Source: an uncultured Gammaproteobacteria bacterium
Lineage (GTDB): Bacteria; Patescibacteriota; Microgenomatia; UBA8517; UBA10165
Assembly: GCA_964472675.1 (NCBI GenBank)
Contig: CAYYLO010000005.1
Location: 1-61,821 of the forward strand
Direction: 5' to 3'
Length of the DNA: 61,821 nt
Every line of letters begins with the position of its first letter. The stretch's first letter is position 1. This document shows positions 1,191 through 42,223 of the stretch, piece by piece. The position numbers and the translations under genes were made by a program. The notes under the pieces are model-generated. The model saw only the letters and a list, made by a program, of their open reading frames with translations. It ran no database searches and was not told the DNA's origin.

Positions 1191-1556
1191 GGGGATGATA
1201 GGCATCGACGGGAAAGTACTTTGACACGTTGCAAGCCGAGGATGACTAAGCACTCGTTAAATCATAGTCAAAAATATAAAAGGCACGGATTATTCCGCAG
1301 CCCGAGTCACAACTTACGCATACGCGTACGCTTAAACTCGCATCCACACTTAGTGCGTCTGGTTGCTCAAGTGCTGGGTGTCAACTTTTACCAGAACGCA
1401 ACCGGTTATCTGATCAGTACCGGCCAAGATTTGATCTTTGCAGGGAAACCAACTTTGGTTTGCTAAAGGGTTTCTTGCGAGAAAAAATAGCAAAATAAGC
1501 TTGTAGATACGTTTAAAGATCTTGCTCGGATGAGGGTTCAATTCCCTCCATCTCCA
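1191..1556 (+). ncRNA. ssrA: tmRNA (one-piece)
   Basis: 5' GGGGATG pairs with 3' CATCTCC-A including G3.U70; T-arm GGTTCAATTCC; internal tag ORF 1282-1335 GTDYSAARVTTYAYAYA*. Confidence 0.95.
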
Positions 1557-1559
1557 CAC

Positions 1560-2327: not shown

Positions 2328-4106
2328 TTACCTTTTTAGAGGAATTGAGAAAATTTTGTTGTTAACAAGAAGAAAAATCTTTTTGTCAGAGCTGGAAACT
2401 ACCATTCCACTGGCCTGCCTGGCCTCGTCAACCACATATTCAAATTTATAACTGCCGGTTTTATCAAGCTCTACAATACGCCCCAAACCCCTGTCCAACA
2501 CATACAATGAATCCAACGATGGATCAGTGTAAATAGCTGTGGCTTCCCCAAAAGGACGGGGAAGGTCTAAAATACGGAAAGAGTCTTTTGTCCCCCTTGC
2601 ATACCTGGTAATATTTCCATCAGAACCCAAAACATATATTGACCCGTCTATCGTCCAGCTTTTGGTTTCCCTCACCAAATCCAGGGAATCACTTTTAAGC
2701 CACTCCTGTTTGTCTCCAAAACCGTTCGTTATCCCAGGATACTTCCAAATAACTCCGCCCTTTTCCAACAAATAAAGATTTGAGCCAAAAGCCGCAATCT
2801 TTACAGGAGAATTCCACTGGCTGTCTGCCGGAATAATTACTTTCCCTCCGGTTTTATCAACTTCCGAAACCCCATCTTTGCCTAGAACATATGTCCTCCC
2901 GTCAACATTTGACACAGACAAAGGACTTGTTGCCTTGCCCGAAACCGTAGTTTCTTTATTTTTGCTGCCCACAAACACAACACGCTCACCTTGAATATCT
3001 AAAACGGCCATTGTCCTGTTGCTAAACGCTAAATCAGAGGCGCTAATATCCTGTCTAAAAATGGTCAGGTCGGTAAAGGGTGTGGCAGGAACATGAGATT
3101 GTCCCAAAATCTCCGATTCTTGAGAATCAAGTTCACTTTTAAGTTGATCTAGAGCTGGATCGTCAACCCCTTCTTCTTTCAGGGAAGTCAGAATTGCCTT
3201 AGCTTGCGTAAAAAAATCACGGGACTGTAAGATGTTTGACCCTTTTAAGGAGACAGCATCACTATAAAGCACTTGTGCACGGCTTAAACGGTCCTGATAT
3301 GAGGCTTTGTAATCCCGAACTCCTTTTTGTTTTATCCCAAAAAAGATACTGACACTCAATAAAACTAAAAGTACTGTGCCAACATAAAAAGCCGTTCTTC
3401 GGGAGGCCGAGGGAATGCCTGGCGTAAATTCACGCTCAGGCAGCATGTAAGCAAATTTAACCAATAGCTTCTTAAAAATACTTGGCTCTGCACAAGTTTT
3501 GACGGCAAGAACAGGCATGGTTTGTACTTCTTCAGCAGAAACTGACACAACTTTAGCTTTAACCACTACTCCTCCGGCTTTAGGGTCATCACTTCTGTGG
3601 ATAAGGGGACTTATGGCGTCAGCAACTTCATCAGCCGTACTTTTACCCTCAAATATTTCTTCTAAATTTCCCACTAAAGCTCTATTGAAGAATTCAGCCG
3701 TACCCAACAGGAACAAATCTCCAGAATCTAAACGTCCCGAGAAATTGTCAGAATTCAGACGATAAGGTTTTTGGCCCCTGACCGCCCAGATTTCAGCCAA
3801 ACCCCGCTTGGCAAAATAAATGTGGTCACCTGAAACTATGCAAGCAGCAAAACCCGGATTGTTGCTTCTAAATGTTGAGTATAATCTTTCTACTATCGAA
3901 GATGTATTTTGAGCTATGCTACTTGATGATAAGCACTCCGCCTGAAGAAGAGAGAGAGCCTCGTGGCCACTTTCGATTGCGGATGTAGCATCAGCTTCCC
4001 CACCTGCTTCCAAGGATAACAAAACTACCAGCCCATCCTTTTCATAAACCTGCGTCCAGGCACGCCTTGTAGCATTTAGAAGAATCTTGGCAGTGAGAAC
4101 GGGCAT
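2328..4106 (-). CDS. Membrane protein: degenerate PP2C-like N-domain, TM, extracellular beta-propeller
   Basis: GDLFLLGTAEF resembles the PP2C core; TM AFYVGTVLLVLLSVSIFFGI; repeated IDGSIYVL/NLYLL/SLYVLD blades. Confidence 0.6.
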   Translation of the reverse strand: MPVLTAKILLNATRRAWTQVYEKDGLVVLLSLEAGGEADATSAIESGHEALSLLQAECLSSSSIAQNTSSIVERLYSTFRSNNPGFAACIVSGDHIYFAKRGLAEIWAVRGQKPYRLNSDNFSGRLDSGDLFLLGTAEFFNRALVGNLEEIFEGKSTADEVADAISPLIHRSDDPKAGGVVVKAKVVSVSAEEVQTMPVLAVKTCAEPSIFKKLLVKFAYMLPEREFTPGIPSASRRTAFYVGTVLLVLLSVSIFFGIKQKGVRDYKASYQDRLSRAQVLYSDAVSLKGSNILQSRDFFTQAKAILTSLKEEGVDDPALDQLKSELDSQESEILGQSHVPATPFTDLTIFRQDISASDLAFSNRTMAVLDIQGERVVFVGSKNKETTVSGKATSPLSVSNVDGRTYVLGKDGVSEVDKTGGKVIIPADSQWNSPVKIAAFGSNLYLLEKGGVIWKYPGITNGFGDKQEWLKSDSLDLVRETKSWTIDGSIYVLGSDGNITRYARGTKDSFRILDLPRPFGEATAIYTDPSLDSLYVLDRGLGRIVELDKTGSYKFEYVVDEARQASGMVVSSSDKKIFLLVNNKIFSIPLKR

Positions 4107-38722: not shown

Positions 38723-41017
38723 CTACTCTTGTGGAGTTGGCCAGGGGGCCAGCATGATGGACTCACTCTTTTCCAGTTTCTCCAACCACAACTCTTCAGT
38801 TAAGAAGGGTATAAAGGGATGGAGCAGTCTAAGTATAGAGTCTAGTACATACTCTAAAGTAGGCTGAGCGCCCTCGCGGCGGGATTTGGAATTTTCAATA
38901 TAGACATCGGCAAATTTATGCCATATAAAGTCATAGAGCTCCTCTGTCGCTAAATGCAGCTGAAAACCTTCGATATTTTTAGTTACTTCTTGGGTGGTTT
39001 TCTCCAATTCTTCCAGAATCCACATATCATCTTGGTGTAAGTTGTCATTCTGAGCCAGGTTACCGGACGGTACCTGGCTCAGAATCTCTGCTGTCGGAGC
39101 GTGTACACTTGTCCCAGGTTCCCCAGGACTCGCATGCGCGAGAGACCTTTCGGCCGATTGCCTCAGGGTGACACCATTTGGTCTTAAGTCAACAATAAAA
39201 CGGGCGATGTTCCGGAGCTTATTGCCGAAATTGCGAAAGTTTTTGGCACGCTCATCCATTAACTGCTTTGAAGTGCGGGAGTCGCGGCCAGGGGCGGCAT
39301 AGGTGTAAAGAGTCATTCTCACACTGTCAGTTCCCCAAGCATCGCGCAGCTCGTTAGGGTAAACTGCGTTCCCCAAAGATTTGGAAAACTTAGCGCCAGT
39401 TAGAGGGCGCAACATTCCATGGAAAAACATATGTTTGAATGGAATTTCGTCTTTAAACCACAACGAAAGCATAATCATGCGAGCAATCCATAAATATTTA
39501 ATTTCGGGAGCAGTGATCTCAAAATCCCAAGGGAAGTAGGCTTTAAAATCTTTAGATTTTTCAGGGCCGCCTTCGCCTTCAGTTTCGTCGAGCCAAGGCC
39601 AGCCGAGGGTAGTGATTGGCCACATGCCGGATGAAAACCATGTATCAAAAACCTGCTCGTCCTGTGCCCAGTGCTTTTTACCGCAAGAGGTACACTCCCG
39701 GGTTGGCTCTTCGAAAGAAACCATTATTTCTTTGTCCTTACCCACAAGCTTTCCGTGGTTACATTTTATACAGTACCAAACAGGAATTCTGTGCCCCCAC
39801 CAAAGCGAGCGGGAAATGCACCAGTCATGAATATTTTCCAGCCAGTCGGTGAGAATTTTTTGATAATTTTCAGGATAGAAGTTAATTTCTCCAATGTGCT
39901 CTAAAGCCTTTTTGGCCAAAGGCTCCATTTTGATAAACCATTCTTCAGAGATCAAAGGCTCAACTGTTGTTTTGCAGCGCTCGCAAATCGGGACAGAATG
40001 GGTATAATTTTCAACTTTCTCCAAAGCATCCAGACTTTCTAATTTTTGGGCTGCTTTTTCTCTTGCTTCTTCAATTTTTAAGCCGGACAAATCTTGTGCC
40101 AGTTCTGTTGTGCGGCCTGTTTTGTCAATAGCGTGTAGAATCGGAAGATTGTGGTCTTTGCCAATCTGGTAATCCAAAGGATCGTGGCCTGGTGTGATTT
40201 TTAATGCTCCTGTTCCAAACTCCGGATCAACCCTTTCATCTTCAAAAATGGGGACATACTCTCCGGTCAAGGGGTTTTTGGCTTTTTTGCCAATAAATTG
40301 GGCGTACTTAGGGTGGTTGGGGTAGACTGCAATACCCGTATCGGCGTAGATTGTTTCCGGACGAGCAGTGGCAATGACAACACAATCGCCTTCGGCTTGG
40401 CTTTGTTCAATTTGATATCTCACAAAGTAGAGCTTTTCTTCCTTTTCCAGATATTCCATCTCCACATCTTCAATAGCGGTTCCGCATTTTGGACACCATT
40501 GGACGATGTAGGCGCCTTTATATAAAAGGCCCTGTTCCCAAAAAGTTTTAAACTCGGTAAAAACAGCTTTTTGGATCTTAGGCTCAAAAGTAAACACCTC
40601 TCGTAACCAGTCGGCAGAAATTCCGAGTACTGTCCAGGTGTTATGGAAGGATTTATAAACCTCGTCTTTAAACTTCCAAGCTCGTTTCAACCATTCTTCG
40701 CGGCCTAGTTTGTGTTTTGACAAACCTTCTTTTTCAAGGATTTTGTTAAACGTGCCCTCAAATTGAATTCCTGCATGGTCGACTCCGGGAAGCAGTAAAA
40801 CGTCGTAGCCTTGCATACGTTTATAGCGGGCTAAAGCATCTAAAATTGCGTGCTGCATTGCATGACCCAAATGAAGGTCACCGGTTAAGTTGGGTGGAGG
40901 CATTAATAGGGAGTAGCGGGGTTTGTCAGATTCTGGATTGGCACGAAAAAGCCTCGAGGCTTCCCAGGCCTCGTATATTTCTTTTTCTTTGTTTAGTTGT
41001 TGCTGGTTATTGTTCAC
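38723..41017 (-). CDS. valS: Valyl-tRNA synthetase, short form
   Basis: PPPNLTGDLHLGH, DWCISRSLWWGHRIP, DTWFSSG, KFSKSLGN; start set to GTG 41017 (TATAAT 7 nt upstream). Confidence 0.95.
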   Translation of the reverse strand: MNNNQQQLNKEKEIYEAWEASRLFRANPESDKPRYSLLMPPPNLTGDLHLGHAMQHAILDALARYKRMQGYDVLLLPGVDHAGIQFEGTFNKILEKEGLSKHKLGREEWLKRAWKFKDEVYKSFHNTWTVLGISADWLREVFTFEPKIQKAVFTEFKTFWEQGLLYKGAYIVQWCPKCGTAIEDVEMEYLEKEEKLYFVRYQIEQSQAEGDCVVIATARPETIYADTGIAVYPNHPKYAQFIGKKAKNPLTGEYVPIFEDERVDPEFGTGALKITPGHDPLDYQIGKDHNLPILHAIDKTGRTTELAQDLSGLKIEEAREKAAQKLESLDALEKVENYTHSVPICERCKTTVEPLISEEWFIKMEPLAKKALEHIGEINFYPENYQKILTDWLENIHDWCISRSLWWGHRIPVWYCIKCNHGKLVGKDKEIMVSFEEPTRECTSCGKKHWAQDEQVFDTWFSSGMWPITTLGWPWLDETEGEGGPEKSKDFKAYFPWDFEITAPEIKYLWIARMIMLSLWFKDEIPFKHMFFHGMLRPLTGAKFSKSLGNAVYPNELRDAWGTDSVRMTLYTYAAPGRDSRTSKQLMDERAKNFRNFGNKLRNIARFIVDLRPNGVTLRQSAERSLAHASPGEPGTSVHAPTAEILSQVPSGNLAQNDNLHQDDMWILEELEKTTQEVTKNIEGFQLHLATEELYDFIWHKFADVYIENSKSRREGAQPTLEYVLDSILRLLHPFIPFLTEELWLEKLEKSESIMLAPWPTPQE
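39043..39173. mobile_element. Palindromic MITE/REP-like element inserted in frame in valS
   Basis: TIR TGTCATTCTGAG...CTCAGGGTGACA; internal 13-bp stem TTCTGAGCCAGGT/ACCTGGCTCAGAA. Confidence 0.85.
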
Positions 41018-41040
41018 CAATTCAATTATATGACATTTGG

Positions 41041-41194
41041 AGCGCAGAATGAATTTTTGTAGTAGCGCACTTTTAAGATTGTTCAAGAAGTCCCGCTTAG
41101 CGGGATGAATTGAACAAGATCGAACTCGCCAGAGGCGAAGTCGGCGAAGCCGAAGGATACCACGGCGCCAGGAGTGGTAGTTCATGTGTGCGCT
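41041..41194. mobile_element. Palindromic MITE-like element between tsaD and valS
   Basis: Imperfect TIR AGCGCAGAATGAA / TTCATGTGTGCGCT; nested hairpin TTGTTCAA..TCCCGC-TTA-GCGGGA..TTGAACAA. Confidence 0.6.
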
Positions 41195-41197
41195 GTT

Positions 41198-42223
41198 CTA
41201 TGTGGTGGTGATGGTTAGACTTGGGTTGGTTGTAACTTCTTGCCAGGGGATAGGGTGGTAATTGAATTCTGCAGCAGCAGCAATCATAGCGGCATTGTCG
41301 GTGCACAACTTCGGAGAAGGAATATGGAGATTAATGTCCAATGATAAATGACCAATGCTAAATTCAAACTTTTCGCAGAGGCGGGAGTTCGCGGCGACCC
41401 CACCTGACACTAGAATTGTTTTAACGCCACACCTTTGTGCAGCTTTTAAAGTTTTGGCTACCAACACATCAGTGATAGCTTCCTGTACCTCGTAAGCAAT
41501 CTGATTTATTGCTTGATTGCTTAACTGGTTTGCTTCTTTAAGTTGATTTACTTCTCGGAGTACTGCTGTCTTTAAACCACTGAAAGAAAAGTCAAAATTA
41601 TTTTGATCCAACAAAGGCCTCGGAAGTTTAATTGGAAATTGAAAATTGGAAATTGGAAATTTTGCTGCTGAGGCAGCAATCGCTGGTCCGCCTGGATAGC
41701 CCAACGTGAGAAGCCGTGCCGCTTTGTCAAAGGTTTCTCCGGCAGCGTCATCGCGTGTGCCGCCGATCCATTCAACTTCTCTGTGGTCTTTCAACAAAAC
41801 AATATCTGTGTGACCGCCAGAGACCACTAGCGCAATTGCTGGAAGCGTTGGGGGGTTATCTAGCCAATTGGCGTAAATATGTCCCAAAAGGTGGTTTATG
41901 GGGACAATAGGCTTATCCCAAACCCAAGAAAGAGTCCTGGCGGTTTCTACGCCAACCAACAGGGAACCGATTAAGCCCGGGCCATAAGTGACCGCTATTG
42001 CGTCCAAATTTTCAATTTTCAATTTACAATTTCCAATGGCCTCGTTGATAACAGGAATTATGGATTTGACTTGTTCGCGGGCTGCCTGTTCGGGAATAAT
42101 ACCTCCGGTTTTTGCATGCATTTCAACCGAGGAGGCAATCGCGTTGGAGAGTATTTCTTTCCCATCTTTTACAACTGCGGCTGCTGTTTCGTCGCAACTG
42201 GTTTCGATACCTAGAATAGTCAT
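41198..42223 (-). CDS. tsaD: tRNA N6-threonylcarbamoyladenosine biosynthesis protein
   Basis: LGIETSCDETA, GPGLIGSL, HLLGH, VSGGHT, DDAAGETFDK, GGVAANS, CTDNAAMI. Confidence 0.98.
   Translation of the reverse strand: MTILGIETSCDETAAAVVKDGKEILSNAIASSVEMHAKTGGIIPEQAAREQVKSIIPVINEAIGNCKLKIENLDAIAVTYGPGLIGSLLVGVETARTLSWVWDKPIVPINHLLGHIYANWLDNPPTLPAIALVVSGGHTDIVLLKDHREVEWIGGTRDDAAGETFDKAARLLTLGYPGGPAIAASAAKFPISNFQFPIKLPRPLLDQNNFDFSFSGLKTAVLREVNQLKEANQLSNQAINQIAYEVQEAITDVLVAKTLKAAQRCGVKTILVSGGVAANSRLCEKFEFSIGHLSLDINLHIPSPKLCTDNAAMIAAAAEFNYHPIPWQEVTTNPSLTITTT

Follow-up and report, generated by a model that had tools for sequence, protein, structure and literature searches.

A 129-nt palindromic DNA element lies in frame within the valyl-tRNA synthetase (ValRS) gene of an uncultured groundwater bacterium, on a stretch of 61,821 nt (contig CAYYLO010000005.1 of assembly GCA_964472675.1) that is referred to in its entirety as the window. 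It belongs to a family of dispersed repeats, is missing from the closest relatives and keeps the reading frame. Specifically, it is probably a non-autonomous composite of hairpin repeats of the kind described as Neisseria Transformation Sequence (NTS) or Ssn-related motif (SRM), which has settled in frame in a permissive loop between two ValRS domains. The best ValRS matches come from Ca. Blackburnbacteria and Daviesbacteria, and the organism therefore belongs to the Microgenomates part of the candidate phyla radiation (CPR).

The ValRS gene (38723..41017, minus strand) encodes 764 amino acids from a GTG start, and its open frame continues upstream to 41185 (38723-41185, minus strand; 820-aa frame). 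Pfam assigns tRNA-synt_1 (E 2e-107) and Anticodon_1 (E 6.5e-34), identifying a class I valyl-tRNA synthetase, and the signature motifs are intact (HIGH-type HLGH at residue 49, KMSKS-type KFSKS at residue 543). Across the insert, the translation reads ARFIVDLRPN-GVTLRQSAERSLAHASPGEPGTSVHAPTAEILSQVPSGNLAQND-NLHQDDMWILEEL. The composite palindromic element occupies 39044..39172 on the minus strand, where its 129 nt form 43 codons (V616-D658) with the bounds GTC...GAC and are read through in frame; the coding strand starts with GTCACCCTGAGG and ends with CTCAGAATGAC. Only frames +0 and -0, the two that start at GTC, are free of stops, and ValRS uses one of them. The initial annotation had described an element bounded by terminal inverted repeats and lying in frame in ValRS, and both sequence and translation agree with this description. 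The hairpin and the inverted termini that it named are real, while the stem measures 14 bp instead of 13 and the natural bounds are 39044-39172 (129 nt) instead of 39043-39173.

The terminal inverted repeats are TGTCATTCTGAG on the left (39043..39054, plus strand) and TGTCACCCTGAG on the right (39162..39173, minus strand; 10/12 identical to the left), and both fit the oriented SRM 5′ motif HGTCWY, as TGTCAT at 39043-39048 (+) and as TGTCAC at 39173-39168 (-). The left end is formed by an NTS/SRM-like module C (39044..39086, plus strand) that comprises GTC, a hairpin ATTCTGAGCCAGGT/ACCTGGCTCAGAAT and a closing C, its GTC strand being the plus strand, i.e., the template strand of ValRS. The perfect 14-bp inverted repeat of this module (39047-39060 / 39072-39085, plus strand) encloses an 11-nt loop and is followed by ATCTCT, which fits the downstream SRM motif RNCYNB, and folding lengthens the stem to ~17 bp with one bulge. 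At its tip sits an apical sub-hairpin, CCAGGT-TACCGGACGGT-ACCTGG (39055..39077, no strand assigned), whose 21-23-nt apex CCAGGTTACCGGACGGTACCTGG recurs on unrelated outer stems in loci L081, L082 and L083; compared with the window, the L083 loop is flipped. The sub-hairpin has the look of an insertion nested within the module C loop. There follows a variable middle with small hairpins (GTCCTGGGGAACCTGGGAC; GTGTACAC; 39087..39128, minus strand), which differs between copies, and then hairpin B (TCTCGCGCATGCGAG, stem CTCGC/GCGAG; 39129..39143, minus strand), which is kept in both L083 copies (TCTCGCGAATGCGAG). Module A (GTCACCCTGAGGCAATCGGCCGAAAGGTC; 39144..39172, minus strand) completes the element as a partly decayed homologue of GTCATCCTGAGGCGTAGCCGAAGGATC, which is present in L083 copy 2 and in L037, and its stem is reduced to a short ACC/GGT.

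The GC content of the element is 0.59, compared with 0.42 for the window, and perfect hairpins of at least 14 bp occur once in the window versus eight times in 200 Markov shuffles, which is more than expected by chance. The RNA fold of the element has a z of -4.75, with 0/200 shuffles folding as well. Both junctions between element and ValRS were recovered in independent assemblies from four groundwater metagenome runs of two studies, and the element is therefore not an assembly chimera. Within the 61.8-kb window, no second copy was found by exact, 3-mismatch, blastn-short or nhmmer searches.

Further copies, which the initial annotation had proposed to look for, exist elsewhere. A composite profile finds full-length copies in the window ValRS (129 nt), twice in intergenic DNA of L083 (104 and 100 nt) and in the TsaD gene of L037 (~95-97 nt), where the element is again in frame, in the opposite orientation. 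L083 copy 1, which lies between divergent genes, has the part order of the window, i.e., module A, hairpin B, a variable middle and module C with the same terminal sequence, and copy 2, located 10 kb away, nearly fills a 120-nt gap between two large open reading frames (ORFs). Hairpin B reads TCTCGCG-A/C-ATGCGAG in the L083/window set, and its stem shows compensatory changes, CTCGC/GCGAG versus CCCAC/GTGGG (CCCAC-GAAT-GTGGG in L037). Direct repeats of 3 nt or more, which would indicate a target-site duplication, are missing from the ends of all four composites. In the source metagenomes, the assembly graph breaks at the hairpin, and further contigs from four runs carry the same core with different flanks or match the interior of an L083-type composite. 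One core-bearing contig tracks the depth of this genome in three runs (38 vs 37.9; 25.6 vs 30.3; 5.5 vs 6.0), and the shared 32-nt unitig has a depth of ~80, about twice that of the genome. Scanning metagenomes for the 21-nt hairpin apex returned three contigs; on otherwise unrelated ones, the apex tops longer GC-rich hairpins that adjoin tRNA-Tyr (L081 2208-2237) and tRNA-Ile (L082 90-125). At a locus homologous to L083 3241-3594 in runs X1-X3 (flanks ~93% identical), 253 other bases stand in place of 352 nt, a stretch covering the intergenic composite together with the beginning of the downstream gene, which is a presence/absence-type polymorphism at a composite site. Scans of viral contigs were uninformative, with 0 matches to the internal signature of the composite and 1 match to a second module.

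These copies bear on one alternative, namely that an ordinary lineage-specific insertion arose at the protein level and only looks palindromic by coincidence. The linkers of aminoacyl-tRNA synthetases do differ in length among lineages. However, nucleotide homology to intergenic copies and an opposite-orientation copy in another gene already contradict this explanation, and the GC content and hairpin statistics are in line with this. Conservation of the segment as protein, which the initial annotation had named as the finding that would speak against a mobile element, was not seen either: among 1.84 billion representative proteins the peptide has no true homologue, the sole match being spurious and made up of 18 weak ones to a repeat protein. 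We therefore assign this explanation next to no probability.

The building block of the composites also occurs alone. Of all 7-mers found 30 times or more in 1.4 Mb of related genomes, GTCATTC ranks first for being followed by a perfect hairpin of at least 7 bp at offset 3 (19%), and GTCATCC is joint second with ACCTCCG (10.5%), compared with a background of 0.39%; the ranking presupposes no hairpin, and the module pattern is therefore not a selection artefact. Modules are found in intergenic DNA, at a second ValRS site, in TsaD and in a ~410-aa membrane protein, and they are always read through when inside genes. Identical 25-nt modules lie in different genes of different species (e.g., GTCATCCCGAATTTATTTCGGGATC in L026, L045 and L074). 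Stringent modules fall inside reading frames of at least 150 aa in 24 of 37 cases, in frame and in essential genes, a share that is somewhat inflated by the choice of loci around ValRS and that contrasts with the 2% of NTS that are intragenic in N. meningitidis (PMC11893778). Their orientation relative to the coding strand is 12:12.

TsaD, whose gene adjoins ValRS (window 41198-42223), has two or three recurrent in-frame sites of module insertion (L037 8408-9673, L029 7561-7597, L074 8854-8877, L031 8409-8539, L005 390-428); with three separate inserts, the L037 protein reaches 421 aa versus 341 aa in the window. A predicted membrane protein of ~406-416 aa carries in-frame modules at one shared loop in three species (L003 20801-20833, L026 9357-9409, L035 16078-16101; e.g., ...VILSLSQDLRSRNKFGMT...).

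The distribution of inserts at the ValRS linker itself was followed across 80 ValRS loci from species representatives, in 79 of which the homologous site could be placed by anchored tblastn. The linker measures 39 nt in 27/79 sites (13 aa, e.g., PEDAATSSDFSHE) and 27-45 nt in 14/79, one further site (L071) looks frameshifted, and in 37/79 the linker is expanded to 51-162 nt. The empty site that the initial annotation had expected in relatives is thus present: the closest relative, L001 (82% ValRS identity), has 45 nt or 15 aa, the ground state of the clade is 13 aa, and Thermus thermophilus has ~6 residues. Measured against this relative and this ground state, the 150-nt site of the window is a lineage-specific expansion, and its position is a hot spot in the clade as a whole. 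The inserts comprise at least 15 unrelated sequences, and expanded and unexpanded sites are interspersed on the flanking-protein tree. At least 21 of the 37 expanded sites hold modules built as GTC + ATTC...GAAT + C, with ATCC...GGAT and ATTGC...GCAAT as variants, either singly or as facing pairs, and a facing pair yields the 'terminal inverted repeats' GTCAT...ATGAC.

Several other features of ValRS genes were noted in the same comparison. A second hot spot, at ~residues 205-260 just upstream of ...ITIATARPET, contains in-frame modules in five species (L003 10622-10652, L006 10620-10651, L016 9967-10002, L021 10624-10647, L074 10592-10614), and the window ValRS is unexpanded there. A second, unrelated palindrome family, CACCTCCGAGG...CCTCGGAGGTG, translated as ...TSEV.../...SSEV..., is present in L026 (30-63), L040 (9612-9645) and L042 (5223-5256) and also fills the ValRS linker in two Curtissbacteria (L057, L058); the 7-mer ACCTCCG, joint second in the ranking above, was noted in connection with it. 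The ~1-kb ValRS 'insertion' of L078 was discarded, being an adjacent IleRS paralogue. Within the window gene, 44 nt of the WHKFADVYIE region (38892-38935) are matched at 90-95% by metagenome contigs with a depth of up to 7x that of this genome, and related, more abundant Microgenomates populations are therefore present in the same samples.

The position of the insert in the protein helps to understand how ValRS could accommodate it. According to Pfam, the catalytic core ends at ~residue 637 and Anticodon_1 begins at 720 (820-aa numbering), with the insert between the two, and the alignment to T. thermophilus ValRS (1GAX) extends over both flanks and leaves just its ~6 residues (591-598) at the site. 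In an AlphaFold model built with 36 homologues, residues 619-658 are coil with a predicted local distance difference test (pLDDT) score below 50, flanked by confident helices (584-610 and 662-683); the 43 extra residues are predicted, on the basis of this low-confidence coil between confident helices, to form a disordered surface loop at the domain boundary. Furthermore, the expanded linkers are multiples of 3 in 37/37 cases and contain 0 stops. If the frame were irrelevant, at least 15 independent inserts would all be in frame with a chance of ~(1/3)^15 by our own calculation. Frame conservation thereby suggests that the insert is translated, and it would be tolerated because the loop is permissive. 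Inspection of the sequence also shows the conserved part of the module to be open in 5/6 frames, only GAA-TGA-C closing one, which helps to explain the persistence of such repeats inside genes.

An element acting at the RNA level, which the initial annotation had offered as an alternative, fares less well against the same data. Modules are oriented 12:12 and the composite is present within genes in either orientation, which speaks against a signal specific to one RNA strand, and the in-frame, stop-free state of every expanded site disfavors the alternative further. A specific version of it is that an intron-like or bypassed intervening sequence is removed before or during translation, leaving a mature ValRS that lacks the 43 residues. 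The very strong RNA structure would be in keeping with this, but conserving the frame and avoiding stops would be needless for a segment that is removed, 129 nt is far below the size of self-splicing introns, and the element occurs in both orientations in genes. Moreover, an Rfam scan of 38900-39320 identified no family, its only two matches, to miRNA models with E 2.5 and E 4.6, being noise. The data thus disfavor removal at the RNA level, and we judge it extremely unlikely.

The identity of the modules is suggested by a system recently described in Neisseria. Chenal et al. (Nat Commun 2025; PMC11893778) defined the NTS, CGTCATTCCCGCGMAVGCGGGAATCYRG, which contains the dRS3 repeat; this repeat, ATTCCC-N8-GGGAAT, is the NTS core. 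The broader class of SRMs comprises hairpins that are bound only as single-stranded DNA (ssDNA) by small single-domain GIY-YIG proteins named Ssn (cd10448), which cut a few nucleotides upstream of the motif, and ssn genes are typically flanked by motifs in a layout resembling an insertion sequence (IS) (PMC11893778). An SRM is there an inverted repeat of 20-50 nt with HGTCWY at the 5′ and RNCYNB at the 3′ side, searched with the pattern HGTCWYN(0-2)YYVSBRHN(0-5)WNVSBRGN(0-2)RNCYNB, hand-built from 29 genomes, and an ssn gene is called at E < 1e-10 against N. meningitidis SsnA (PMC11893778). The Microgenomates modules share the oriented 5′ (C/T)GTCAT followed by a hairpin and then ATC, are multi-copy and clustered, and include the exact 24-nt published NTS core (GTCATTCCCGCGAAAGCGGGAATC) in L001, L031 and L059, as well as in 109 IMG/VR stretches. 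The published SRM pattern also matches modules at homologous sites, namely in the L030 ValRS linker, at ValRS site 2 of L021 and in L031 TsaD. In contrast, the window modules have another stem and a nested apical hairpin, and the publication (PMC11893778) is silent on CPR/Patescibacteria and on in-frame copies.

The second component of the system, the nuclease gene, is likewise found with the modules. In L107, an SRM(+) and an SRM(-) bracket an ORF for a 97-aa GIY-YIG protein (PF01541, E 2.6e-15), and in L030 (Daviesbacteria) a 105-aa homologue that shares 53% identity with the L107 protein is bracketed by three of the four modules of the locus. The 3′ module of this L030 ssn gene, TGTCATCCCCGACTAGATCGGGGATCCAG, is 27/29 identical to the ValRS-linker module of the same genome. 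A constant layout, in which an SRM(+), ~20 nt and an SRM(-) are followed by ssn and by an SRM(-) that overlaps with the gene's 3′ end, recurs in L030, L194 (a complete Woesebacteria genome), L195 and L197-199, and its forward module is often an exact NTS. The 5′ doublet of this unit and the ValRS-linker doublets are objects of one kind. In relatives of the window organism, modules are thus the flanking repeats of ssn-type GIY-YIG genes of ~100 aa with a single domain, in an IS-like arrangement as in Neisseria. Homologues of 94-110 aa number at least 7,980, a large part of them labelled Patescibacteria, Woesebacteria or Wildermuthbacteria, and many CPR Ssn-like proteins end in ...WIPD.VGDDK (W-I/M-P-D-x-V-G-D/H-D-K), which is the translated 3′ module (P0122, P0124, P0135, P0154; L030 2062-2098). 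As the last ~10 residues are encoded by the module, the nuclease gene overlaps its own recognition repeat. NCBIfam contains no model for this small GIY-YIG family. Divergent GIY-YIG ORFs in L003 and L010, which have no obvious flanking modules, were not counted as ssn.

Two further observations concern NTS and ssn loci. L141 (2071-2431), like L109, L134 and L151, contains tandem arrays with a 77-nt period and an exact NTS core per unit, these loci being IMG/VR proviral stretches of isolates; such arrays resemble the intergenic mosaic elements of Neisseria. In L197-L199 (around 1175-2800 and 3001-3306), a phosphoglycerate mutase gene lies upstream of one and the same ssn gene (P0190), whose right-hand neighbors differ between two contigs from a single sample. 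L197 and L198 have the mutase gene called as 2-3 fragments and L199 has it as one 540-aa gene, which may reflect repeat-associated disruption or assembly error.

The features of the modules would also suit a different enzyme. In this scenario, they resemble repetitive extragenic palindromic (REP) sequences or bacterial interspersed mosaic elements (BIMEs) and owe their spread to a RAYT (REP-associated tyrosine transposase) or to a HUH enzyme of the IS200/IS605 type instead of a GIY-YIG Ssn. Such enzymes recognize an ssDNA hairpin with a short conserved 5′ motif and insert without target duplications, and the modules are hairpins after a conserved oriented motif, form inverted pairs like BIMEs or REP doublets (REPINs) and show no target-site duplications at the composites. 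REP/BIME/REPIN repeats and their RAYT (Nunvar et al. 2010, PMC2817692) share with the present system short imperfect palindromes oriented by a conserved 5′ motif, inverted pairs and mosaics without target duplications, and recognition of ssDNA hairpins by a single-copy enzyme whose gene is flanked by repeats; the Ssn publication draws the REP analogy as well (PMC11893778). However, REPs are extragenic by definition, whereas most of the stringent modules lie within reading frames, and their enzyme is a tyrosine HUH transposase and not a GIY-YIG nuclease. The 5′ motif of REPs is of the GTAG type, compared with GTCAT in the modules. With the exact NTS core among the modules, the near identity of the ssn-flanking and ValRS-linker modules in L030, and a GIY-YIG gene instead of a Y1 transposase gene bracketed in all CPR loci looked at (no systematic RAYT screen was made), we consider a RAYT or HUH enzyme unlikely.

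The inverted termini could furthermore be taken to indicate a classical MITE (miniature inverted-repeat transposable element), i.e., a deletion derivative of an IS with a DDE transposase that moves by cut-and-paste. The element has imperfect terminal inverted repeats, is small, lacks coding capacity of its own and occurs in multiple copies, and bacterial MITEs that fuse in frame (intragenic ERIC, Correia/NEMIS; PMC10969869) are similarly small, non-coding, bounded by such repeats and occasionally translated. Against this, all four full composites are free of target-site duplications, the termini are two facing oriented hairpin modules that also occur alone as autonomous units, and the only gene found between the same ends encodes a GIY-YIG nuclease and not a parental DDE transposase. 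A classical MITE is therefore highly unlikely.

The available data are more compatible with a model based on NTS/SRM-type hairpin repeats and Ssn. Two oriented modules, each GTCAT plus a hairpin, face each other and produce the apparent termini GTCAT...ATGAC, with an internal hairpin and a variable spacer between them and a small hairpin nested in the loop of one module, a layout expected of a miniature derivative of the IS-like SRM-ssn-SRM unit. An Ssn whose gene lies at another place in the genome would act on the ValRS element in trans and may nick ssDNA just 5′ of a module, followed by repair or gene conversion from other copies. In this way, Ssn could spread, refresh and homogenize the copies, a step that we hold with less confidence than translation of the insert, and in an essential gene only in-frame, stop-free copies would survive. 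Nicking plus conversion would explain how one linker comes to hold many module variants, how inserts grow by nesting and why they are unusually conserved, and it would also account for the persistence of hot spots, the turnover of variants and the nested and flipped apical hairpin. Mobilization or transposition by Ssn is suggested by the distribution of the modules.

The unusual conservation refers to inserts that are shared between two species, which are 64/65, 48/50 and 37/38 identical, compared with 67-83% for the flanking ValRS DNA and 44-56% for third codon positions. This is the opposite of the expectation for a disordered loop and might result from selection at the nucleotide level, from gene conversion by other genomic copies or from recent re-insertion at exactly the same position; we favor conversion linked to nuclease nicking. 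Alternatively, the hairpins might be kept for a host nucleic-acid function and not be selfish, the peptide being a by-product. Possible variants of this idea include limiting recombination or transformation near essential genes, as proposed for NTS in Neisseria, or an mRNA structure that slows the ribosome at the domain boundary. It would fit that shared inserts are more conserved than nearby synonymous sites, that stems show compensatory changes and that insertion sites are domain linkers and loops. However, about half of the clade has the 13-aa linker without a hairpin, the occupants of the site vary in sequence, number and orientation, their orientation relative to transcription is balanced, the same composites lie in intergenic DNA, and gene conversion among copies explains the conservation equally well. 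A host function is accordingly an improbable explanation in our assessment.

Several points weigh against an NTS/SRM-type composite that is mobilized by Ssn and translated as part of ValRS. The known role of Ssn is that of a nuclease modulating transformation in Neisseria, with no transposition or homing activity demonstrated (PMC11893778). The literal published SRM pattern has 0 matches in the window, where the stem reads ATTCTGAGCC... and not ATTCCCGCG, and in 1.36 Mb of relatives its 6 matches are no real excess over the 0-4 obtained in Markov controls; the published expression is too narrow for Microgenomates genomes. Searches by tblastn and profile found no ssn homologue in the 61.8-kb window, and the CPR GIY-YIG proteins are called Ssn-type by their domain and flanking modules. 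The excess conservation could, as set out above, reflect selection on a function of the hairpins instead of conversion. Regarding the insertion itself, contigs of the four metagenome runs revealed no joints skipping the element and thus no empty-site ValRS alleles, although such contigs show presence and not absence. Finally, no RNA run holding the locus was found, and it is frame conservation that suggests translation of the insert. The main risks are the possible absence of an Ssn from the genome of the window and a translation that is deduced from the gene.

The in-frame lifestyle of the element has a precedent. Rickettsia palindromic elements (RPEs) are palindromic repeats inserted in frame in Rickettsia proteins (Ogata et al. 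2000, via the review PMC10969869), and the initial annotation had proposed the same phenomenon in CPR, which is supported by the absence of the segment from relatives, the lack of a true homologue of the peptide and the repeat copies outside ValRS. As in the case of RPEs, palindromic repeats of ~100-150 bp are found in a bacterium with a reduced genome, in frame in unrelated housekeeping genes (window ValRS, L037 TsaD) and also between genes (L083), and they add peptide segments at positions compatible with the fold, a likeness in layout. The comparison with RPEs therefore holds for the phenomenon, while the element as such is assigned to the NTS/SRM hairpin repeats tied to GIY-YIG Ssn nucleases (PMC11893778). 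Differences are the host phylum, the occurrence of the ~25-nt building block on its own and the recurrent hot spots, such as the ValRS linker in 37/79 species. As SRM-rich genomes include those of Rickettsia and Wolbachia (PMC11893778), RPEs and SRMs may be related. In the literature searched, no paper linking RPEs with GIY-YIG proteins was found, nothing relevant on palindromic, MITE or REP elements in CPR was retrieved, and a search for the module as a sequence string returned unrelated primers only.

The sole curated RNA family in the window is a standard tmRNA gene (1191-1559, plus strand; Rfam RF00023, 133.8 bits).

As kinds, both the NTS/SRM repeats (2025) and the palindromes that lie in frame in Rickettsia genes (2000) are already known. 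Absent from the literature searched are NTS/SRM-Ssn systems in CPR, their predominantly intragenic in-frame lifestyle there, essential genes as recurrent hot spots, inserts conserved to excess and a link between 'protein-coding palindromes' and a GIY-YIG nuclease. The findings extend NTS/SRM-Ssn to CPR/Patescibacteria, where the repeats are mostly intragenic, compared with 2% in Neisseria. They also have practical implications, since length variation and 'low-complexity' loops of CPR core proteins such as ValRS and TsaD can be derived from repeats, which affects alignments, the trimming of phylogenomic markers and structure prediction, and such hairpins break short-read assemblies within essential genes. 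Furthermore, two literatures that were not connected in our searches are joined, i.e., the 25-year-old puzzle of in-frame palindromes in Rickettsia and the Ssn nuclease/hairpin system of 2025, and the in-frame phenomenon thereby gains a candidate enzyme, for which a ~100-aa protein and an oligonucleotide suffice as an in vitro test. More tentatively, and with considerable doubt on our part, Ssn and SRMs might be the general engine behind 'protein-coding palindromes', in which modules would colonize permissive loops of essential proteins in reduced genomes with little intergenic DNA (CPR, perhaps Rickettsia) and the sites would become permanent landing pads that are rewritten by nuclease-triggered conversion. 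If this were true, ValRS, TsaD and other core proteins would carry fast-changing, DNA-templated loops that are set by a selfish pair of nuclease and hairpin and not by protein function.

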